Assembly (NCBI RefSeq): GCF_000009045.1
Contig: NC_000964.3
Coordinates: 390,001-422,000, forward strand
Length of the DNA stretch: 32,000 bases
Reading direction: 5' to 3'
Origin: Bacillus subtilis subsp. subtilis str. 168
Lineage (GTDB): Bacteria > Bacillota > Bacilli > Bacillales > Bacillaceae
Shown here: piece by piece, positions 1-18,135 of the stretch
How the letters are laid out: each line of letters begins with the position of its first letter
Position numbering within the stretch: position 1 is the first letter of the stretch
Notes under the pieces: model-generated
Databases searched by the model: none
What the model was told of the DNA's origin: nothing
Seen by the model: only the letters and a program-made list of their open reading frames with translations
Made by a program: the position numbers and the translations under genes

Positions 1-3000
1 GCCCGACAGAAAACACGACGTTTTCAACCAGTTTTCTGATCGACCGCGAGTATGGCGGCTCTATCCCAATCGGGAAGCCGATCGGAAATTCCACTGCCTA
101 TATTATGGATGAGCAGCAATGCCTGCAGCCAATCGGCGCGCCTGGTGAGCTTTGCGTAGGCGGAATCGGTGTAGCGCGTGGGTATGTCAATCTCCCTGAG
201 CTGACGGAGAAGCAATTTCTGGAAGACCCGTTCAGACCGGGTGAGAGAATTTACCGCACTGGTGACTTGGCAAGATGGCTGCCGGACGGCAATATCGAAT
301 TTTTAGGCAGAATCGACAACCAAGTGAAGGTGCGCGGCTTCCGAATTGAGCTTGGCGAAATTGAAACAAAACTGAACATGGCTGAGCATGTGACAGAAGC
401 CGCGGTGATCATACGCAAGAACAAAGCAGACGAAAATGAAATTTGCGCGTACTTCACGGCGGATCGTGAAGTGGCTGTGAGTGAGCTGAGAAAAACACTG
501 TCTCAGTCTTTGCCTGACTATATGGTCCCTGCCCACCTGATTCAAATGGACAGCCTGCCGCTCACGCCAAACGGGAAAATCAACAAAAAGGAACTGCCTG
601 CACCGCAATCAGAAGCCGTGCAGCCGGAATACGCAGCACCAAAAACAGAGAGTGAAAAGAAATTAGCGGAGATCTGGGAAGGAATACTCGGCGTCAAAGC
701 AGGCGTTACCGATAACTTCTTTATGATCGGCGGCCATTCTTTGAAAGCGATGATGATGACGGCGAAAATTCAAGAGCATTTTCATAAGGAAGTTCCGATA
801 AAAGTGCTTTTTGAAAAGCCGACTATTCAAGAACTGGCACTGTATTTGGAAGAGAACGAAAGCAAGGAGGAGCAGACGTTTGAACCGATCAGGCAAGCAT
901 CTTATCAGCAGCATTATCCTGTATCCCCGGCCCAGCGGAGAATGTATATCCTCAATCAGCTTGGACAAGCAAACACAAGCTACAACGTCCCCGCTGTACT
1001 TCTGCTGGAGGGAGAAGTAGATAAAGACCGGCTTGAAAACGCGATTCAGCAATTAATCAACCGGCACGAAATCCTCCGTACATCGTTTGACATGATCGAC
1101 GGAGAGGTTGTGCAAACCGTTCATAAAAACATATCGTTCCAGCTGGAGGCTGCCAAGGGACGGGAAGAAGACGCGGAAGAGATAATCAAAGCATTTGTTC
1201 AGCCGTTTGAATTAAACCGCGCGCCGCTCGTCCGTTCGAAGCTTGTCCAGCTGGAAGAAAAACGCCACCTGCTGCTCATTGATATGCATCATATTATTAC
1301 TGACGGAAGTTCAACAGGCATTCTAATCGGTGATCTTGCCAAAATATATCAAGGCGCAGATCTGGAACTGCCACAAATTCACTATAAAGATTACGCAGTT
1401 TGGCACAAAGAACAAACTAATTATCAAAAAGATGAGGAATACTGGCTCGATGTCTTTAAAGGCGAACTGCCAATACTGGATCTTCCCGCGGATTTCGAGC
1501 GGCCAGCTGAACGGAGCTTTGCGGGAGAGCGCGTGATGTTTGGGCTTGATAAGCAAATCACGGCTCAAATCAAATCGCTCATGGCAGAAACAGATACGAC
1601 AATGTACATGTTTTTGCTGGCGGCGTTCAATGTACTCCTTTCCAAGTACGCGTCACAGGATGATATCATTGTCGGCTCGCCGACAGCTGGCAGAACACAT
1701 CCTGATCTGCAAGGTGTGCCGGGTATGTTTGTCAACACGGTGGCACTCAGAACGGCACCAGCGGGAGATAAAACCTTCGCGCAATTCCTTGAAGAGGTCA
1801 AAACAGCCAGCCTTCAAGCATTCGAGCACCAGAGCTATCCGCTTGAGGAGCTGATTGAAAAGCTTCCGCTTACAAGGGATACAAGCAGAAGTCCGCTGTT
1901 CAGCGTGATGTTCAACATGCAGAATATGGAGATTCCTTCATTAAGATTAGGAGATTTGAAGATTTCCTCGTATTCCATGCTTCATCATGTTGCGAAATTT
2001 GATCTTTCCTTGGAAGCGGTCGAGCGTGAAGAGGATATCGGCCTAAGCTTTGACTATGCGACTGCCTTGTTTAAGGACGAGACGATCCGCCGCTGGAGCC
2101 GCCACTTTGTCAATATCATCAAAGCGGCCGCGGCTAATCCGAACGTTCGGCTGTCTGATGTAGATCTGCTTTCATCTGCAGAAACGGCTGCTTTGCTAGA
2201 AGAAAGACATATGACTCAAATTACCGAAGCAACCTTTGCAGCACTTTTTGAAAAACAGGCCCAGCAAACACCTGACCATTCTGCGGTGAAGGCTGGCGGA
2301 AATCTGTTGACCTATCGCGAGCTTGATGAACAGGCGAACCAGCTGGCGCATCATCTTCGTGCCCAAGGGGCAGGAAATGAAGACATCGTCGCGATTGTTA
2401 TGGACCGGTCAGCTGAAGTCATGGTATCCATTCTCGGTGTCATGAAGGCGGGGGCAGCTTTCCTTCCGATTGATCCTGATACACCTGAAGAACGAATCCG
2501 TTATTCATTAGAGGACAGCGGAGCAAAATTTGCGGTCGTGAATGAAAGAAACATGACGGCTATTGGGCAATATGAAGGGATAATTGTCAGCCTTGATGAC
2601 GGTAAATGGAGAAATGAAAGCAAGGAGCGCCCATCATCCATTTCCGGGTCTCGCAATCTTGCATACGTCATTTATACGTCCGGTACGACCGGAAAGCCAA
2701 AGGGCGTGCAGATTGAGCATCGTAATCTGACAAACTATGTCTCTTGGTTTAGTGAAGAGGCGGGCCTGACGGAAAATGATAAGACTGTATTGCTTTCATC
2801 TTACGCATTTGACCTTGGCTATACGAGCATGTTCCCTGTACTTCTGGGCGGGGGCGAGCTCCATATCGTCCAGAAGGAAACCTATACGGCGCCGGATGAA
2901 ATAGCGCACTATATCAAGGAGCATGGGATCACTTATATCAAGCTGACACCGTCTCTGTTCCATACAATAGTGAACACCGCCAGTTTTGCAAAAGATGCGA

Positions 3001-6000
3001 ACTTTGAATCCTTGCGCTTGATCGTCTTGGGAGGAGAAAAAATCATCCCGACTGATGTTATCGCCTTCCGTAAGATGTATGGACATACCGAATTTATCAA
3101 TCACTACGGCCCGACAGAAGCAACGATCGGCGCCATCGCCGGGCGGGTTGATCTGTATGAGCCGGATGCATTTGCGAAACGCCCGACAATCGGACGCCCG
3201 ATTGCGAATGCCGGTGCGCTTGTCTTAAATGAAGCATTGAAGCTTGTGCCGCCTGGAGCGAGCGGACAGCTCTATATCACGGGACAGGGGCTCGCGAGAG
3301 GGTATCTCAACAGGCCTCAGCTGACAGCCGAGAGATTTGTAGAAAATCCATATTCGCCGGGAAGCCTCATGTACAAAACCGGAGATGTCGTACGAAGACT
3401 TTCTGACGGTACGCTTGCATTTATCGGCCGGGCTGATGATCAGGTGAAAATCCGAGGCTACCGCATTGAGCCGAAAGAAATTGAAACGGTCATGCTCAGC
3501 CTCAGCGGAATTCAAGAAGCGGTTGTACTAGCGGTTTCCGAGGGCGGTCTTCAAGAGCTTTGCGCGTATTATACGTCGGATCAAGATATTGAAAAAGCAG
3601 AGCTCCGGTACCAGCTTTCCCTAACACTGCCGTCTCATATGATTCCTGCTTTCTTTGTGCAGGTTGACGCGATTCCGCTGACGGCAAACGGAAAAACCGA
3701 CAGAAACGCTCTGCCGAAGCCTAACGCGGCACAATCCGGAGGCAAGGCCTTGGCCGCACCGGAGACAGCGCTTGAAGAAAGTTTATGCCGCATTTGGCAG
3801 AAAACGCTTGGCATAGAAGCCATCGGCATTGATGACAATTTTTTCGATTTAGGCGGCCATTCATTAAAAGGGATGATGCTGATTGCCAACATTCAGGCGG
3901 AATTGGAGAAAAGCGTACCGCTTAAAGCACTGTTCGAGCAGCCGACAGTTCGCCAGCTGGCGGCTTATATGGAGGCGTCTGCTGTTTCAGGCGGCCATCA
4001 AGTACTCAAACCGGCTGACAAGCAGGATATGTATCCATTGTCATCCGCACAGAAACGAATGTACGTGCTCAATCAGCTTGACCGCCAGACGATAAGCTAC
4101 AACATGCCATCTGTTCTTCTAATGGAAGGAGAGCTTGATATTTCGCGCCTGCGCGACTCACTCAATCAGCTTGTGAACCGTCACGAATCATTGCGGACGT
4201 CATTTATGGAAGCTAATGGTGAGCCTGTTCAGCGCATCATTGAGAAGGCGGAGGTTGATCTTCATGTGTTTGAAGCCAAAGAAGACGAAGCGGACCAAAA
4301 GATTAAGGAATTTATCCGGCCATTCGACTTAAACGACGCACCGCTCATTCGCGCAGCTTTGCTTCGAATAGAAGCGAAAAAACATTTGCTGCTTTTAGAT
4401 ATGCATCATATCATCGCAGACGGCGTCTCAAGAGGCATCTTTGTAAAAGAATTGGCGCTGCTTTACAAAGGAGAGCAGCTTCCGGAGCCGACGCTTCATT
4501 ATAAAGATTTCGCCGTTTGGCAAAATGAAGCTGAGCAAAAAGAACGGATGAAGGAGCATGAGGCGTACTGGATGTCAGTTCTTTCAGGCGAGCTGCCAGA
4601 GCTTGATCTCCCGCTCGATTATGCCCGTCCGCCTGTGCAAAGCTTTAAAGGAGATACGATCCGTTTCCGTACGGGAAGTGAGACGGCAAAGGCGGTAGAA
4701 AAACTGCTTGCCGAAACCGGAACGACCTTGCACATGGTGCTCCATGCTGTTTTCCACGTCTTTTTAAGCAAAATTTCCGGACAGCGGGATATCGTCATCG
4801 GCTCCGTTACTGCCGGCCGGACGAATGCTGATGTTCAGGACATGCCGGGAATGTTCGTCAATACACTTGCCCTGAGAATGGAAGCGAAAGAACAGCAAAC
4901 ATTTGCGGAGCTTTTGGAGCTAGCAAAGCAGACGAACCTGTCAGCCCTTGAGCATCAGGAGTATCCGTTTGAAGATCTGGTTAATCAGCTTGATCTCCCT
5001 CGGGATATGAGCCGAAACCCATTGTTTAATGTGATGGTGACGACAGAAAACCCTGATAAAGAACAGCTTACATTGCAAAATCTGAGCATTTCACCTTATG
5101 AGGCTCATCAGGGAACTTCTAAGTTTGATCTGACACTGGGCGGATTTACTGATGAAAATGGCATTGGCTTGCAGCTCGAATATGCGACAGATCTGTTCGC
5201 AAAAGAAACAGCTGAAAAATGGAGCGAATACGTTCTGCGGCTACTAAAGGCTGTTGCGGATAACCCGAACCAGCCGCTTTCCAGTCTGTTACTGGTCACC
5301 GAGACAGAAAAGCAAGCGCTTCTTGAGGCATGGAAGGGCAAAGCGCTGCCTGTGCCGACAGACAAAACGGTTCATCAGCTATTCGAAGAGACTGTCCAGC
5401 GCCACAAAGACCGCCCGGCTGTCACATACAACGGCCAATCTTGGACGTACGGCGAGCTGAACGCGAAGGCAAACCGCCTCGCCCGGATTCTGATGGACTG
5501 CGGCATCAGCCCGGATGACCGCGTCGGCGTTCTCACGAAGCCGTCGCTTGAAATGTCCGCCGCGGTGCTCGGCGTCTTGAAAGCCGGAGCGGCGTTTGTG
5601 CCGATTGATCCTGACTACCCGGATCAGCGGATTGAGTATATTTTACAGGACAGCGGCGCGAAGCTTCTCTTGAAACAGGAAGGCATTTCAGTGCCGGACA
5701 GCTATACGGGAGATGTCATTCTTCTCGACGGAAGCCGCACGATTCTAAGCCTGCCGCTTGATGAAAACGACGAGGGAAATCCAGAAACCGCTGTAACCGC
5801 GGAGAACTTGGCGTACATGATTTACACGTCTGGAACGACCGGACAGCCGAAGGGTGTCATGGTCGAGCACCATGCGCTTGTGAACCTGTGCTTCTGGCAC
5901 CACGACGCGTTCAGCATGACAGCGGAGGACCGCAGTGCGAAGTACGCGGGCTTCGGGTTCGACGCTTCCATTTGGGAGATGTTCCCGACCTGGACGATCG

Positions 6001-8495
6001 GCGCTGAACTTCACGTCATTGATGAAGCGATCCGCCTCGATATCGTCCGCCTGAACGATTATTTTGAAACGAACGGCGTAACGATCACGTTCCTGCCGAC
6101 ACAGCTTGCGGAACAGTTCATGGAGCTTGAGAACACATCACTTCGCGTCCTCTTGACCGGAGGAGACAAGCTGAAGCGGGCAGTGAAAAAGCCGTACACA
6201 CTCGTCAACAACTACGGGCCGACAGAAAATACGGTCGTTGCCACAAGCGCAGAAATCCATCCGGAGGAAGGCTCGCTTTCCATCGGACGGGCCATTGCCA
6301 ATACGAGAGTATACATTCTCGGCGAGGGCAATCAGGTGCAGCCGGAAGGCGTAGCCGGAGAGCTTTGCGTGGCGGGGCGCGGACTGGCACGAGGCTATCT
6401 GAATCGAGAAGACGAAACCGCGAAGCGGTTTGTCGCTGATCCGTTTGTGCCGGGTGAACGCATGTACCGCACCGGCGACTTGGTGAAGTGGGTGAACGGC
6501 GGCATCGAATACATCGGCCGGATCGACCAGCAGGTCAAGGTCCGCGGCTACCGGATCGAGCTCTCAGAAATTGAAGTCCAGCTCGCCCAGCTTTCTGAGG
6601 TGCAGGATGCGGCGGTGACAGCTGTCAAAGATAAAGGCGGCAATACAGCGATCGCGGCGTATGTCACACCGGAAACAGCTGACATAGAAGCACTAAAATC
6701 AACACTAAAGGAAACCCTGCCGGATTACATGATCCCGGCGTTCTGGGTGACGCTGAACGAGCTTCCGGTTACGGCAAACGGCAAAGTCGACCGCAAAGCC
6801 TTGCCTGAGCCGGACATCGAAGCGGGAAGCGGAGAATACAAAGCGCCGACGACCGACATGGAAGAGCTGCTTGCCGGCATCTGGCAGGACGTGCTTGGAA
6901 TGTCTGAAGTCGGTGTCACCGACAATTTCTTCTCGCTTGGCGGAGATTCCATCAAAGGAATTCAAATGGCGAGCCGCTTGAATCAGCACGGCTGGAAGCT
7001 GGAAATGAAAGATCTCTTCCAGCATCCGACGATCGAAGAGCTCACCCAGTACGTAGAGCGTGCCGAAGGCAAACAGGCAGACCAAGGCCCGGTGGAGGGC
7101 GAAGTCATCCTGACGCCGATCCAGCGCTGGTTCTTTGAAAAGAACTTCACGAACAAGCACCACTGGAACCAATCGGTGATGCTTCACGCCAAAAAGGGCT
7201 TTGATCCTGAACGGGTGGAGAAAACATTGCAGGCGCTGATCGAGCATCATGACGCGCTCCGCATGGTCTACCGCGAGGAAAACGGGGACATCGTTCAGGT
7301 GTATAAACCGATCGGTGAGAGCAAGGTCAGCTTCGAAATCGTGGATCTGTACGGCTCCGATGAAGAGATGCTGAGAAGCCAGATTAAGCTTCTCGCGAAC
7401 AAGCTGCAAAGCAGTCTCGATCTGCGAAACGGGCCGCTTTTAAAGGCGGAGCAATATCGCACAGAAGCTGGGGATCACCTGCTCATTGCTGTACACCATC
7501 TCGTGGTCGACGGTGTGTCATGGCGGATTTTGCTTGAAGACTTTGCTTCAGGCTACATGCAGGCTGAGAAAGAAGAGAGCCTTGTCTTCCCGCAAAAAAC
7601 AAACTCCTTCAAGGATTGGGCGGAAGAACTGGCGGCATTCAGCCAATCAGCGCATCTTTTACAGCAGGCTGAATACTGGTCGCAAATTGCCGCTGAACAG
7701 GTTTCTCCTTTACCTAAGGATTGTGAAACAGAGCAGCGGATCGTCAAGGATACATCATCTGTCCTATGTGAATTAACGGCAGAAGACACTAAGCATCTTT
7801 TAACAGATGTTCATCAGCCATATGGAACTGAAATCAACGATATTCTTCTCAGCGCGCTCGGTTTGACAATGAAAGAATGGACAAAGGGGGCCAAAATTGG
7901 CATTAACCTTGAGGGACACGGCCGGGAGGACATTATCCCGAATGTGAATATCTCCAGAACGGTCGGCTGGTTTACGGCACAATACCCTGTTGTGCTCGAC
8001 ATATCTGACGCAGATGCCTCAGCTGTGATCAAAACAGTCAAAGAAAACCTGCGCCGCATTCCGGACAAAGGTGTTGGCTACGGCATTCTTCGTTATTTCA
8101 CAGAAACAGCGGAAACAAAGGGCTTCACACCGGAGATCAGCTTCAACTATTTGGGCCAATTCGACAGTGAAGTCAAAACCGATTTCTTTGAACCGTCCGC
8201 TTTCGATATGGGGCGCCAAGTAAGCGGAGAATCAGAGGCGCTGTACGCATTAAGCTTCAGCGGCATGATCAGAAACGGCCGGTTTGTGCTTTCCTGCTCC
8301 TACAATGAGAAGGAGTTTGAAAGAGCTACAGTCGAGGAGCAAATGGAACGGTTTAAAGAAAACCTCCTGATGCTAATCCGCCATTGCACGGAAAAAGAAG
8401 ACAAGGAATTCACACCAAGCGACTTCAGCGCCGAAGACCTTGAAATGGACGAGATGGGAGATATCTTTGACATGCTTGAGGAGAATTTAAAATAA
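1..8495 (+). CDS. srfAB: Surfactin non-ribosomal peptide synthetase subunit 2, 5'-truncated by the window edge (end of A-T | C-A-T | C-A-T-E)
   Basis: The frame is open from nt 3 (PTENTTFSTSFLIDREYGGSIPIGKPIGN..., upstream of the track's first Met at 105) to TAA 8493-8495. NRPS core motifs occur in order: GGHSL 729-743, HHIITDG 1287-1307, AYVIYTSGTTGKPKG 2661-2705, GGHSL 3852-3866, HHIIADG 4404-4424, AYMIYTSGTTGQPKG 5811-5855, GGDSI 6939-6953, HHLVVDG 7494-7514. It is followed by a 1275-aa C-A-T-TE protein and a type II thioesterase, as in the B. subtilis srfA operon. Confidence 0.97.
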   Translation, partial: PTENTTFSTSFLIDREYGGSIPIGKPIGNSTAYIMDEQQCLQPIGAPGELCVGGIGVARGYVNLPELTEKQFLEDPFRPGERIYRTGDLARWLPDGNIEFLGRIDNQVKVRGFRIELGEIETKLNMAEHVTEAAVIIRKNKADENEICAYFTADREVAVSELRKTLSQSLPDYMVPAHLIQMDSLPLTPNGKINKKELPAPQSEAVQPEYAAPKTESEKKLAEIWEGILGVKAGVTDNFFMIGGHSLKAMMMTAKIQEHFHKEVPIKVLFEKPTIQELALYLEENESKEEQTFEPIRQASYQQHYPVSPAQRRMYILNQLGQANTSYNVPAVLLLEGEVDKDRLENAIQQLINRHEILRTSFDMIDGEVVQTVHKNISFQLEAAKGREEDAEEIIKAFVQPFELNRAPLVRSKLVQLEEKRHLLLIDMHHIITDGSSTGILIGDLAKIYQGADLELPQIHYKDYAVWHKEQTNYQKDEEYWLDVFKGELPILDLPADFERPAERSFAGERVMFGLDKQITAQIKSLMAETDTTMYMFLLAAFNVLLSKYASQDDIIVGSPTAGRTHPDLQGVPGMFVNTVALRTAPAGDKTFAQFLEEVKTASLQAFEHQSYPLEELIEKLPLTRDTSRSPLFSVMFNMQNMEIPSLRLGDLKISSYSMLHHVAKFDLSLEAVEREEDIGLSFDYATALFKDETIRRWSRHFVNIIKAAAANPNVRLSDVDLLSSAETAALLEERHMTQITEATFAALFEKQAQQTPDHSAVKAGGNLLTYRELDEQANQLAHHLRAQGAGNEDIVAIVMDRSAEVMVSILGVMKAGAAFLPIDPDTPEERIRYSLEDSGAKFAVVNERNMTAIGQYEGIIVSLDDGKWRNESKERPSSISGSRNLAYVIYTSGTTGKPKGVQIEHRNLTNYVSWFSEEAGLTENDKTVLLSSYAFDLGYTSMFPVLLGGGELHIVQKETYTAPDEIAHYIKEHGITYIKLTPSLFHTIVNTASFAKDANFESLRLIVLGGEKIIPTDVIAFRKMYGHTEFINHYGPTEATIGAIAGRVDLYEPDAFAKRPTIGRPIANAGALVLNEALKLVPPGASGQLYITGQGLARGYLNRPQLTAERFVENPYSPGSLMYKTGDVVRRLSDGTLAFIGRADDQVKIRGYRIEPKEIETVMLSLSGIQEAVVLAVSEGGLQELCAYYTSDQDIEKAELRYQLSLTLPSHMIPAFFVQVDAIPLTANGKTDRNALPKPNAAQSGGKALAAPETALEESLCRIWQKTLGIEAIGIDDNFFDLGGHSLKGMMLIANIQAELEKSVPLKALFEQPTVRQLAAYMEASAVSGGHQVLKPADKQDMYPLSSAQKRMYVLNQLDRQTISYNMPSVLLMEGELDISRLRDSLNQLVNRHESLRTSFMEANGEPVQRIIEKAEVDLHVFEAKEDEADQKIKEFIRPFDLNDAPLIRAALLRIEAKKHLLLLDMHHIIADGVSRGIFVKELALLYKGEQLPEPTLHYKDFAVWQNEAEQKERMKEHEAYWMSVLSGELPELDLPLDYARPPVQSFKGDTIRFRTGSETAKAVEKLLAETGTTLHMVLHAVFHVFLSKISGQRDIVIGSVTAGRTNADVQDMPGMFVNTLALRMEAKEQQTFAELLELAKQTNLSALEHQEYPFEDLVNQLDLPRDMSRNPLFNVMVTTENPDKEQLTLQNLSISPYEAHQGTSKFDLTLGGFTDENGIGLQLEYATDLFAKETAEKWSEYVLRLLKAVADNPNQPLSSLLLVTETEKQALLEAWKGKALPVPTDKTVHQLFEETVQRHKDRPAVTYNGQSWTYGELNAKANRLARILMDCGISPDDRVGVLTKPSLEMSAAVLGVLKAGAAFVPIDPDYPDQRIEYILQDSGAKLLLKQEGISVPDSYTGDVILLDGSRTILSLPLDENDEGNPETAVTAENLAYMIYTSGTTGQPKGVMVEHHALVNLCFWHHDAFSMTAEDRSAKYAGFGFDASIWEMFPTWTIGAELHVIDEAIRLDIVRLNDYFETNGVTITFLPTQLAEQFMELENTSLRVLLTGGDKLKRAVKKPYTLVNNYGPTENTVVATSAEIHPEEGSLSIGRAIANTRVYILGEGNQVQPEGVAGELCVAGRGLARGYLNREDETAKRFVADPFVPGERMYRTGDLVKWVNGGIEYIGRIDQQVKVRGYRIELSEIEVQLAQLSEVQDAAVTAVKDKGGNTAIAAYVTPETADIEALKSTLKETLPDYMIPAFWVTLNELPVTANGKVDRKALPEPDIEAGSGEYKAPTTDMEELLAGIWQDVLGMSEVGVTDNFFSLGGDSIKGIQMASRLNQHGWKLEMKDLFQHPTIEELTQYVERAEGKQADQGPVEGEVILTPIQRWFFEKNFTNKHHWNQSVMLHAKKGFDPERVEKTLQALIEHHDALRMVYREENGDIVQVYKPIGESKVSFEIVDLYGSDEEMLRSQIKLLANKLQSSLDLRNGPLLKAEQYRTEAGDHLLIAVHHLVVDGVSWRILLEDFASGYMQAEKEESLVFPQKTNSFKDWAEELAAFSQSAHLLQQAEYWSQIAAEQVSPLPKDCETEQRIVKDTSSVLCELTAEDTKHLLTDVHQPYGTEINDILLSALGLTMKEWTKGAKIGINLEGHGREDIIPNVNISRTVGWFTAQYPVVLDISDADASAVIKTVKENLRRIPDKGVGYGILRYFTETAETKGFTPEISFNYLGQFDSEVKTDFFEPSAFDMGRQVSGESEALYALSFSGMIRNGRFVLSCSYNEKEFERATVEEQMERFKENLLMLIRHCTEKEDKEFTPSDFSAEDLEMDEMGDIFDMLEENLK
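729..743 (+). other. Carrier (T/PCP) domain phosphopantetheine-attachment motif GGHSL (Ser codon 738-740), first module in window
   Basis: ggc ggc cat tct ttg, in the srfAB frame, within DNFFMIGGHSLKA. Confidence 0.9.
864..870 (+). promoter_or_regulatory. Shine-Dalgarno sequence of comS (AAGGAGG), embedded in srfAB coding sequence
   Basis: AAGGAGG lies 9 nt upstream of TTG 880. It is built from the srfAB codons AAG GAG GAG. Confidence 0.85.
880..1020 (+). CDS. comS: Competence regulator ComS (46 aa), overprinted in the +1 frame of srfAB
   Basis: TTG start at 880 after a consensus SD, 46 codons, TAG 1018-1020. Translation is MNRSGKHLISSIILYPRPSGECISSISLDKQTQATTSPLYFCWREK, which I recognise as ComS. 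The track shows it as the tail of ORF 811..1020, which merely extends to an upstream TTG with no SD. Confidence 0.93.
   Translation: MNRSGKHLISSIILYPRPSGECISSISLDKQTQATTSPLYFCWREK
1287..1307 (+). other. Condensation domain active-site motif HHxxxDG (HHIITDG)
   Basis: cat cat att att act gac gga, in the srfAB frame. Confidence 0.9.
2661..2705 (+). other. Adenylation domain core motif A3 (AYVIYTSGTTGKPKG)
   Basis: Translated in the srfAB frame. This is the canonical AMP-binding signature. Confidence 0.9.
3852..3866 (+). other. Carrier domain motif GGHSL (Ser codon 3861-3863)
   Basis: ggc ggc cat tca tta, within DNFFDLGGHSLKG. Confidence 0.9.
4404..4424 (+). other. Condensation domain motif HHxxxDG (HHIIADG)
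   Basis: cat cat atc atc gca gac ggc, in the srfAB frame. Confidence 0.9.
5811..5855 (+). other. Adenylation domain core motif A3 (AYMIYTSGTTGQPKG)
   Basis: Translated in the srfAB frame. Confidence 0.9.
6939..6953 (+). other. Carrier domain motif GGDSI (Ser codon 6948-6950), the variant typical of carriers that feed an epimerase
   Basis: ggc gga gat tcc atc, within DNFFSLGGDSIKG. It is followed by an epimerisation-type HHxxxDG domain. Confidence 0.88.
7494..7514 (+). other. Epimerisation domain motif HHxxxDG (HHLVVDG)
   Basis: cac cat ctc gtg gtc gac ggt. This is the terminal domain of srfAB, after the GGDSI carrier. Confidence 0.85.
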
Positions 8496-16130: not shown

Positions 16131-17465
16131 ATGGAGAAATATATGAGTCTATTAACGAGGATAGAGGAGATGATGCAAAGCACCTCATATCAAGAAGGAG
16201 ACAGGCTTCCATCTATCCGTCAGCTGTCCGCCCGCTACCAAGTCAGCAAAAGCACAGTGATCCGCGCGCTGCAGGAGCTGGAAAAGCGCCACCTTATCTA
16301 TTCTGTTCCGAAAAGCGGCTATTATATTGTGAAAAAGTCAGGGAAATCAAAAAGCGGGCAGCCTGGCCCCATCGACTTTGCCACATCTGCGCCGGATCCC
16401 GATGTGTTTCCGTATCTTGATTTTCAGCACTGCATCAACAAAGCGATTGATACATACAAAAACGATTTGTTTATTTATGGGACGCCAAAGGGGCTTCCAT
16501 CACTCATCCGCGTACTCCGAAAGCTCTTGGCCACTCAACAGGTATTTGCGGATGAACGGCATATTTTCATTACATCAGGTGTCCAGCAGGCGTTATCCTT
16601 GCTTTGTGCCATGCCGTTCCCAAATGGGAAAGAGAAGATCGCCATTGAACAGCCGGGCTACCATTTGATGGTCGAACAGCTTGAGACACTTGGGATTCCC
16701 GCCATCGGGGTGAAACGAACGGAAGAAGGGCTTGATATAGCCAAGGTTGAGCGGTTATTTCAAACAGAATCGATTAAATTTTTTTATACGATGCCGCGCT
16801 TCCATAACCCGCTTGGGTGCTCATTGTCAGAGCGTGATAAACAGGAGCTTGTGAGACTGGCAGAAGCGTATGATGTCTATCTCGTTGAGGATGATTACCT
16901 CGGTGATCTGGAGGAAAATAAAAAGGCAGATCCGCTGTACGCATATGATCTGTCCTCACATGTCATCTATTTGAAAAGCTTCTCGAAAATGATGTTCCCC
17001 GGCCTCCGCGTGGGGGCGGCTGTTTTGCCCGAAGCGCTGACTGACACGTTCTATGCGTACAAAAAGCTGAACGACATCGACTGTTCGATGATTTCTCAAG
17101 CGGCATTGGAGATTTACCTGAAAAGCGGTATGTACGGCAGGCATAAGGAGAAAATCAGAGATTCTTATAAAGAGCGGTCGCTGAGGCTACATCAAGCCAT
17201 TCGAACTCACAGGCAGCTGGGAAGCGGACGCTTTACGTTCTCCAGCGGGCAGGCACCCTGTATGCACACCCATCTGGTGCTTCCTCAGGATCTGCCCGCC
17301 TCAAGAGTGATTCATAGACTGGAAAAACAAGGGGTTCTCCTTGAGGCGATAGACCGTCATTATTTATCAGATTATCCGAAAGAAAATCTATTAAAAATCA
17401 ATATTTCCAATGTGAAAACGGAAGATATTGAGCGCGGTGTCAAGCTGTTGATGAGCCATTTATAA
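16131..17465 (+). CDS. ycxD: MocR/GabR-type regulator (GntR winged-helix N-domain fused to a fold-type I aminotransferase-like domain)
   Basis: 444-aa ORF. The N-terminus (GDRLPSIRQLSARYQVSKSTVIRALQELE) is a GntR HTH. The C-domain carries the PLP-lysine context YLKSFSKMMFPGLRVG. An alternative ATG is at 16143. Confidence 0.9.
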   Translation: MEKYMSLLTRIEEMMQSTSYQEGDRLPSIRQLSARYQVSKSTVIRALQELEKRHLIYSVPKSGYYIVKKSGKSKSGQPGPIDFATSAPDPDVFPYLDFQHCINKAIDTYKNDLFIYGTPKGLPSLIRVLRKLLATQQVFADERHIFITSGVQQALSLLCAMPFPNGKEKIAIEQPGYHLMVEQLETLGIPAIGVKRTEEGLDIAKVERLFQTESIKFFYTMPRFHNPLGCSLSERDKQELVRLAEAYDVYLVEDDYLGDLEENKKADPLYAYDLSSHVIYLKSFSKMMFPGLRVGAAVLPEALTDTFYAYKKLNDIDCSMISQAALEIYLKSGMYGRHKEKIRDSYKERSLRLHQAIRTHRQLGSGRFTFSSGQAPCMHTHLVLPQDLPASRVIHRLEKQGVLLEAIDRHYLSDYPKENLLKINISNVKTEDIERGVKLLMSHL

Positions 17466-18135
17466 AAGCTCTTCGTACGAGACCATTGTGATATCCTCGG
17501 GGAAATCAGGGTGTACGGCGCATACAGCCATTTTGTAGCCGGGATCGACCTCATACGTTTTGATATAGCATGGGGAATGGCTGTCCGGAAGCTCAATGGA
17601 TACTTGTCCGTCCTGGTGCAGGCGCACTGAAAAGGAATCAAGCGGAAGCGATAAGCCTTTGCCTTCCTTGTTTGATAAAGCTTTCTTTCATTGACCATAG
17701 ATGATAAAAATAGTCTGTCTGCTCGTCCTTGTCTTTTGCTAAAAGGTCGCTGTACTCTGTTTTTGAAAAGAAGCGCTTGGCGATCTCAAGGCTGATCGGT
17801 TTCGTTTTTTCGATATCTATGCCGATCGGCTGTGAATCAAACGCGCAAATGACCCAGCGTCCGGAGTGAGAAATGTTGAAATGAGCGTCGGGAAGATCAG
17901 GGATGCACGGCTTCCCGTATTCCTGCGTGCTAAAGCGGATATCGGATTTGTCCAACTGATACTGCCTGCTTATGACTGAGCGAACGAGCACATCTCCCAG
18001 CAGGGTGCGGTGAGCATCTTCTTTATGATAAAATCTCCGGCATTTCTCCCGTTTTTCAGGTGATATGAAAGACATGAACCGTTCATTTTCTTCCTGTGAA
18101 AGCGGGCGGTCCATATAAATTCCGTAAATCTTCAT
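17460..18135 (-). pseudogene. sfp: 4'-phosphopantetheinyl transferase Sfp, inactivated by a +1 frameshift (sfp0 allele)
   Basis: Frame 1 (18135 to 17638) gives MKIYGIYMDRPLSQEENERF...HLWSMKESFIKQ, then GRQRLIASA and a stop (165 aa). Shifting one base at about 17668-17669 continues as EGKGLSLPLDSFSVRLHQDGQVSIELPDSHSPCYIKTYEVDPGYKMAVCAVHPDFPEDITMVSYEELL, ending at TAA 17462-17460. The span is 676 nt, which is 225 codons plus one extra base. Confidence 0.93.

Follow-up and report, generated by a model that had tools for sequence, protein, structure and literature searches.

The stretch of DNA analyzed here, referred to as the window, comprises 32,000 nucleotides (nt) of the chromosome of Bacillus subtilis subsp. 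subtilis str. 168 (NC_000964.3, positions 390,001 to 422,000 of the forward strand). Positions below are those of the window, and features lie on the plus strand unless indicated otherwise. The window opens within srfAB (1-8495), which encodes a nonribosomal peptide synthetase (NRPS) composed of repeated condensation-adenylation-thiolation (C-A-T) modules. The start of this gene is located upstream, and the window contains the 3' 2.8 thousand codons in an open reading frame (ORF) at 105-8495 with the Pfam domains Condensation, AMP-binding, and PP-binding. Nested inside srfAB, positions 864 to 1020 almost certainly constitute comS of B. subtilis, a gene of 46 codons with its own ribosome-binding site that is read in the +1 frame of its host. 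A Shine-Dalgarno (SD) sequence, AAGGAGG (864-870), composed of the host codons AAG GAG GAG (Lys-Glu-Glu) of an srfAB linker, is followed by a spacer of 9 nt (AGCAGACGT, 871-879). The comS coding sequence (880-1020) consists of 46 sense codons beginning with TTG at 880-882 and ends with TAG at 1018-1020. Codons of srfAB begin at 105, 108, and so forth up to 879, and comS is thus shifted by +1. With the TTG initiator read as Met, the translated peptide is (M)NRSGKHLISSIILYPRPSGECISSISLDKQTQATTSPLYFCWREK. An initial annotation of this locus had proposed these coordinates, the derivation of the SD sequence from three srfAB codons, and the peptide sequence, all of which were reproduced exactly upon direct reading and translation.

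Based on Pfam domain coordinates, comS is positioned in the linker between a carrier and a condensation domain and at the start of the latter, rather than in an adenylation domain. The carrier (PP-binding) domain of srfAB module 4 (PF00550) occupies 660-848, and the condensation domain of module 5 (PF00668) occupies 906-2198, corresponding to residues 186-248 and 268-698, respectively, of the translated segment 105-2204. The intervening linker (849-905) accommodates the SD sequence, the start codon, and comS codons 1 to 9, and comS codons 10 to 46 overlap the first 38 codons of the module 5 condensation domain. These coordinates agree with the carrier/condensation junction named in the initial annotation. 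It had also stated that the nucleotides encoding the condensation domain motif SPAQRRMYIL (924-953) contribute the C-terminal half of the peptide. The overlap is correct, but the motif underlies ComS residues 15 to 25 in the middle of the peptide, and residues 26 to 46 overlap NQLGQANTSYNVPAVLLLEGEV. Two segments of ComS correspond to sequence elements discussed below. The MecA-recognition motif IILYPR (codons 12 to 17, 913-930) is the +1 reading of CAT TAT CCT GTA TCC CCG (HYPVSP). LYFCW (codons 39 to 43, 994-1008) is a C-terminal block that is invariant in the alignment, coincides with a synonymous minimum, and contains Trp43, the site of a published stop mutation.

The peptide is 100% identical to COMS_BACSU ("Competence protein S") and falls into a cluster (n = 34) of which all members are named ComS. 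Its score with the Pfam family ComS (PF17584) is 126.8 bits (cut-off, 27; E = 2e-37), and the match covers profile positions 1-44 of 44. A scan of the peptide against NCBIfam matched no family, and a PDB sequence search found no solved structure with ComS. The gene is encoded out of frame in srfAB, in the region of the fourth module of the surfactin synthetase operon, and AAGGAGG-N9-TTG would provide it with a ribosome-binding site and start codon of its own inside the host gene. comS is a real, long-known, and well-characterized competence gene, for which PMC7960918 and PMC11230408 cite D'Souza et al. (1994) and Hamoen et al. (1995). The name given in the initial annotation is upheld by the exact identity to COMS_BACSU, the PF17584 match, conservation in 15 species, and a footprint at synonymous sites of srfAB.

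For the comparison across species, orthologs were fetched with a 300-amino-acid query in the SrfAB frame in order to avoid a bias toward the +1 frame. The set comprised 15 srfAB orthologs (79-95% identity), 5 lichenysin-type genes (62-64%), and approximately 60 other NRPS carrier/condensation junctions. The srfAB orthologs included those of B. stercoris, B. spizizenii, B. inaquosorum, B. tequilensis, B. rugosus, B. halotolerans, B. mojavensis, B. mexicanus, B. atrophaeus, B. nakamurai, B. velezensis, and B. siamensis. In 15 of 15 srfAB orthologs, we observed [A/G]AGGAGG, 9 nt, TTG, 46 codons, and a stop codon at the same position, so that the conservation of the +1 ORF and its SD sequence, which the initial annotation had proposed to examine, is evident throughout. 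The SD and TTG arrangement was present in none of the 5 lichenysin orthologs, and no comparable SD-led +1 ORF was found at approximately 46 anchored control NRPS junctions. An alignment of 13 distinct ComS sequences identified the invariant blocks L8-I9..I12-I13-L14-x-P16 and L39-Y40-F41-C42-W43, with either Y or F at residue 15. When the profile of these 13 peptides was compared with 5.8 billion proteins, only 8 clusters were retrieved, all of them named ComS and all from the subtilis, amyloliquefaciens, and atrophaeus clades. comS is conserved in these clades only, and the nested frame is thus younger and more restricted phylogenetically than its host gene.

ComS of B. velezensis, B. amyloliquefaciens, B. 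nakamurai, and B. atrophaeus shares with the window the position in srfAB, the SD sequence, spacing, TTG, length, stop codon, and invariant blocks. Identity to the window peptide is 57-63% in the velezensis clade and 80% in B. atrophaeus, compared to 79-82% for SrfAB over the 300-amino-acid query region. The lichenysin gene lchAB of the B. licheniformis group is homologous NRPS sequence, and its +1 reading gives strings akin to those of ComS, including LIIRYPRR and QATTS. However, lchAB has neither an SD sequence nor a start codon at the homologous position, its +1 stop codons are variable, and open +1 stretches range from 23 to 98 codons. B. licheniformis was reported to lack "an obvious comS" (PMC545597), and a passage of PMC5503854, citing Jakobs et al. 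(2015), describes two putative comS homologs of this species as having no effect on competence. In the lichenysin-type synthetase of B. swezeyi (L016, ~1650-1900), there is a 59-codon +1 ORF at the same junction, encoding ..SLIIRCLQRKGACTFSTSL... Its ATG is preceded by AGGTGA 11 nt upstream, which is a poor spacing, and the ORF does not occur in the four other lichenysin genes. We rejected it as a comS, and it is probably a chance ORF.

Every wobble base of srfAB in the overlap is a second codon position in comS, so that a lower rate of synonymous change in the host gene is expected if ComS is under selection. We quantified synonymous diversity in the srfAB frame of 16 sequences, in 1306 codon columns and 1254 sliding windows of 53 codons. 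Diversity was 0.16 over 862-1020 compared to 0.35 elsewhere, the lowest of all 1254 windows (Mann-Whitney p = 1.7e-9), with z between -3.45 and -3.97 for comS. At a finer scale, minima were located at 861-935, which comprises the SD sequence, start codon, and IILYP (z = -3.97), and at 987-1061, which comprises LYFCW and the stop codon (z = -3.1). In the srfAB codons at 864-887, including the SD codons, there was no synonymous variation at all among the 16 sequences. In a comparison of full-length srfAB (~3,590 codons), which covers only the three deep lineages B. subtilis, B. atrophaeus, and B. velezensis, comS was the second-lowest window, below only the 5' end of the gene. The corresponding junction of the next module, used as a control, exhibited no reduction. 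The pair of frames has the lowered synonymous change in the host frame known from overprinted genes. Individual bases follow the same pattern. The wobble base of the srfAB Pro codon that underlies IILYP is T (CCT) in all comS-bearing sequences shown in the alignment and G (CCG) in all 6 lichenysin- or pumilacidin-type sequences. The adjoining srfAB Val codon is only GTA or GTT, resulting in Tyr or Phe in ComS. The linker segment Q-x-F-E, in which TTT GAA yields TTG in the +1 frame, is absent from lichenysin-type genes in the same alignment. Taken together, these data show that purifying selection acts on the +1 frame.

Two further regions of low synonymous variation lie outside comS. The first ~47 codons of srfAB, upstream of the window (L081/L082/L084, ~6830-7000), had the lowest synonymous divergence in the comparison of three lineages (0.18 versus a mean of 0.47). 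A secondary dip at ~1116-1274, 100-250 nt past the comS stop codon, reached z of about -2.1 to -2.3. This segment contains no ORF of at least 30 amino acids and has a weak RNA fold signal (z = -1.71), and the dip may be noise.

Published work provides a mechanistic context. comS shares its transcript with the srfA operon, which is under quorum-sensing control (PMC12915044, PMC4685060). ComS competes with ComK for MecA, which frees ComK from inhibition and from degradation by ClpCP (PMC5506225). In a passage citing Ogura (1999) and Prepiak and Dubnau (2007), PMC8138137 describes IILYPR of ComS and FMLYPK of ComK as MecA recognition signals. The action of ComS on MecA to spare ComK, as stated in the initial annotation, is therefore established in the literature (PMC5506225, PMC8138137). 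FMLYPK is located near the C terminus of ComK and resembles IILYPR of ComS, which, at residues 12-17 and conserved, would qualify as the equivalent motif. According to the mechanism that we propose for this locus, comS would be transcribed as a segment of the long mRNA of the srfA operon, the promoter of which lies upstream of the window and responds to quorum sensing through ComX/ComP/ComA. Judging from sequence and conservation, ribosomes would initiate translation at the internal AAGGAGG-N9-TTG, within the linker that separates the module 4 carrier domain from the module 5 condensation domain. IIL[Y/F]P would mimic the FMLYPK signal, so that ComS would compete with ComK for the adaptor MecA. 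ComK would then escape MecA/ClpCP degradation, amplify its own synthesis, and switch on the competence genes. A search for an internal comS promoter in 1-1300 gave 3 promoter-like matches compared to 1.2 +/- 1.1 expected, and the only one on the plus strand is a 9/12 match. This number is close to chance and gives no indication of a promoter specific to comS.

Genetic data were available for the same overlap. Five single nucleotide polymorphisms (SNPs) that introduce stop codons into comS and are silent in srfAB lowered PcomK and PcomGA activity to the level of a comS deletion and left surfactin-dependent behaviors intact (PMC12915044). In the same work, a stop mutation at Trp43 of comS caused the behavior of a comS deletion (PMC12915044). 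We mapped the published SNPs to window positions 890, 953 (two alleles), 962, and 1007, and these five are the only srfAB-synonymous, stop-creating changes that are possible in comS here. The kind of experiment suggested in the initial annotation, srfAB-silent comS mutants combined with comK or comG reporters, has thus been published for stop mutants, with reporter activity at deletion level (PMC12915044). The specific change suggested there, T881C, would replace the comS start codon TTG by TCG and leave srfAB with TTC in place of TTT (both Phe), and it is silent in the host frame as stated.

Within the single sequence, the signal for comS is marginal, and cross-species conservation together with the constraint at synonymous sites is decisive. 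In the first 6 kb, nine ORFs of at least 46 amino acids lie on the same strand but out of frame, with a range of 46-104 codons in srfAB, and the length of the comS ORF alone is not beyond chance. AAGGAGG occurs at 10 sites in the window on both strands compared to 3.4 expected from shuffles, and 6 of the other 9 sites precede ORFs of 192-584 codons by 7-9 nt. We searched for AAGGAGG followed after 5-10 nt by a start codon that opens 46 or more out-of-frame codons, a combination that is found once in 8.4 kb of srfAB.

Several observations weigh against our interpretation of the locus. The same combination arose in 6% of synonymous-codon shuffles of srfAB. The opening energy of the comS initiation region (8.4 kcal/mol) is at the 45th percentile of the background (8.9 +/- 3.2), and the minimum free energy over 60 nt (-10.1 versus -12.9 +/- 4.2) is likewise undistinctive with respect to accessibility. 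A mechanically called ORF begins at TTG 811, and NCBI annotates a ComS of 54 amino acids in B. velezensis, B. amyloliquefaciens, and B. nakamurai (P0019-P0022). We infer initiation at TTG 880 from the position of the SD sequence and from conservation. MecA binding, protection from ClpCP, and dependence on the srfA promoter are taken from the literature. No evidence contradicts the identification as comS.

The latter two ORF calls would fit a genuine comS with a different start codon, either TTG 811 (69 amino acids) or the upstream ATG of the velezensis clade (54 amino acids), and this ATG is indeed present 24 nt upstream of the TTG in the four sequences of that clade (L012-L015, ~1751-1915). 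We regard a different start as improbable. Neither TTG 811 nor the velezensis ATG is preceded by an SD sequence, and the upstream ATG is missing from most sequences of the subtilis clade. The only element kept in all 16 sequences is [A/G]AGGAGG followed by 9 nt and TTG, and synonymous variation falls to zero exactly from 864 on. The 54-amino-acid ORF annotated in the velezensis clade itself contains the GAGGAGG-N9-TTG common to all other species, and from these features its annotated start is probably wrong.

It is less probable still that comS is a chance +1 ORF and that the low synonymous variation reflects other constraints on srfAB, such as codon selection in the linker or gene conversion between modules. 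The frequency of out-of-frame ORFs of 46-104 codons in srfAB, the many other NRPS junctions that are open in the +1 frame for 46 codons or more, and the outcome of the codon shuffles would all be expected from such an origin. By contrast, the peptide is that of an experimentally characterized protein, and the SD sequence, start codon, length, and stop codon are maintained in 15 species. The paralogous junction in srfAB has above-average synonymous divergence and a +1 ORF that is not conserved, indicating that low variation is not a general property of carrier/condensation junctions. Finally, the loss of competence gene expression to comS-deletion level in the srfAB-silent stop mutants (PMC12915044) in effect refutes a chance ORF.

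The paralogous junction itself merits consideration, as the initial annotation had noted that the equivalent position of the next module (3883-4095) is open in the +1 frame and yields a related tail (ECTCSISL compared to ECISSISL), a pattern to be expected if comS arose by overprinting after module duplication. From the ORF list and the comparison of lineages, we judged this ORF to be a product of chance outside the comS system. Its length is 70 codons in B. subtilis, 48 in B. atrophaeus, and 21 in B. velezensis, and synonymous divergence is 0.56-0.61 compared to a gene average of 0.47. The string EC..SISL follows inevitably when the nucleotides for the conserved RMYxLNQL (C1 motif) are read in the +1 frame, and unrelated NRPS genes have similar strings, such as those of Paenibacillus (..RRECIF) and B. 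paralicheniformis (..GACTSSISS). Other carrier/condensation junctions, too, are commonly open in the +1 frame for 46 codons or more. We therefore rejected 3883-4095 as a paralog or relic of comS, given that it is not conserved and unconstrained and that its similarity is forced by the C1 motif. The observed pattern is expected with or without an origin of comS after duplication and, consequently, is not evidence for that history. The accompanying statement that this ORF lacks an SD sequence and a start codon holds only at the position equivalent to the comS start, because the ORF opens with a TTG of its own (3883), preceded at a distance of 10 nt by a weak AAAGG.

The possibility that the constrained element is instead an antisense ORF of 129 codons overlapping comS (663-1052, minus strand) can be dismissed as negligible: although it runs for 128-129 codons both in the window and in L001-L011, interruptions reduce it to 28-41 codons in L012-L015 (velezensis/amyloliquefaciens/nakamurai clade), all of which have an intact comS and SD sequence, the trough of constraint spans ~861-1061 and does not reach 663, there is no minus-strand promoter signal above chance in 1-1300, and the same lack of conservation applies to further long antisense ORFs in srfAB. 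Another antisense ORF in srfAB, of 234 codons (6705-7409, minus strand), is open in another B. subtilis strain and contains 7 stop codons in B. atrophaeus and 1 in B. velezensis; we attribute it to chance.

The remainder of the window and related assemblies provided additional observations. A B. subtilis chromosome (L087, CP150162.1) matches the initial 11,020 nt of the window with 100% identity. Judged by domain make-up, srfAB is followed by srfAC (C-A-T and thioesterase), srfAD (thioesterase), a major facilitator superfamily (MFS) transporter, YcxB, an EamA transporter, and a GntR-aminotransferase. A scan of the entire window against Rfam at gathering thresholds detected no RNA family. The gene sfp, encoding a phosphopantetheinyl transferase (17460-18135, minus strand), carries a frameshift after ...SFIKQ, so that the called product ends at 165 amino acids and the other 68 residues (EGKGLSLPLDSF...YEELL*) are encoded in a different frame. 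We take this to be the sfp0 allele of laboratory strains of the 168 lineage, which presumably make no surfactin. If so, comS would be the function of the srfA operon that is still used in this genome.

Two other B. subtilis assemblies contain unusual arrangements of these genes. In CP127089.1 (L083, 9374-10141), comS and its native SD sequence (~841-1040 of the window) are located directly behind comK and distant from srfAB, which looks like the engineered PmtlA-comKS super-competence cassette. In CM137269.1 (L085, 6859-17615), srfAB is open for 2025 codons and then continues in a different frame, with one gap relative to the window, and comS upstream is intact. This break is either a real frameshift or an assembly error.

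With regard to the evolutionary history of comS, its restriction to one set of clades makes an origin by overprinting well supported on comparative grounds. We slightly favor the view that comS is a young gene that arose de novo, through wobble fixation and a change in the linker, in an ancestor shared by the subtilis, amyloliquefaciens, and atrophaeus clades. Its IIL[Y/F]P corresponds to the H/Y-Y-P-V-S box, which is near-universal in NRPS genes where condensation domains begin, read in the +1 frame. Fixation of a few srfAB wobble bases, with Pro encoded by CCT rather than CCG and Val by GTA or GTT, would have made the motif functional. A short linker change would have produced AAG GAG GAG ... 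TTT GAA and thereby created the comS start. If this is correct, NRPS carrier/condensation junctions would be pre-adapted to yield MecA-binding peptides, and the +1 frames of lichenysin genes (IIRYP) would be unexpressed proto-genes.

comS is cited as a classic same-strand nested gene (PMC11230408). Like gndA in gnd of Escherichia coli and rpmH of Thermus thermophilus, it is a small protein gene that uses an internal, frame-shifted start in a larger gene. These cases are unrelated to comS in sequence and function, however, and comS joins a secondary-metabolite operon to a developmental switch. Our analysis makes small additions to the knowledge of this gene, namely its exact position relative to the NRPS domains, the doubtful start annotated in the velezensis clade, and the wobble bases that build the MecA motif. 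It also establishes comS as a positive control, in that a conserved SD sequence, start codon, and stop codon together with a synonymous trough separate a real nested gene from chance look-alikes, including the ORF at the next module. Engineering of srfAB must avoid breaking comS. In B. subtilis and its relatives, comS is a textbook example of a bacterial gene within a gene, which physically ties quorum-driven surfactin synthesis to the competence switch.

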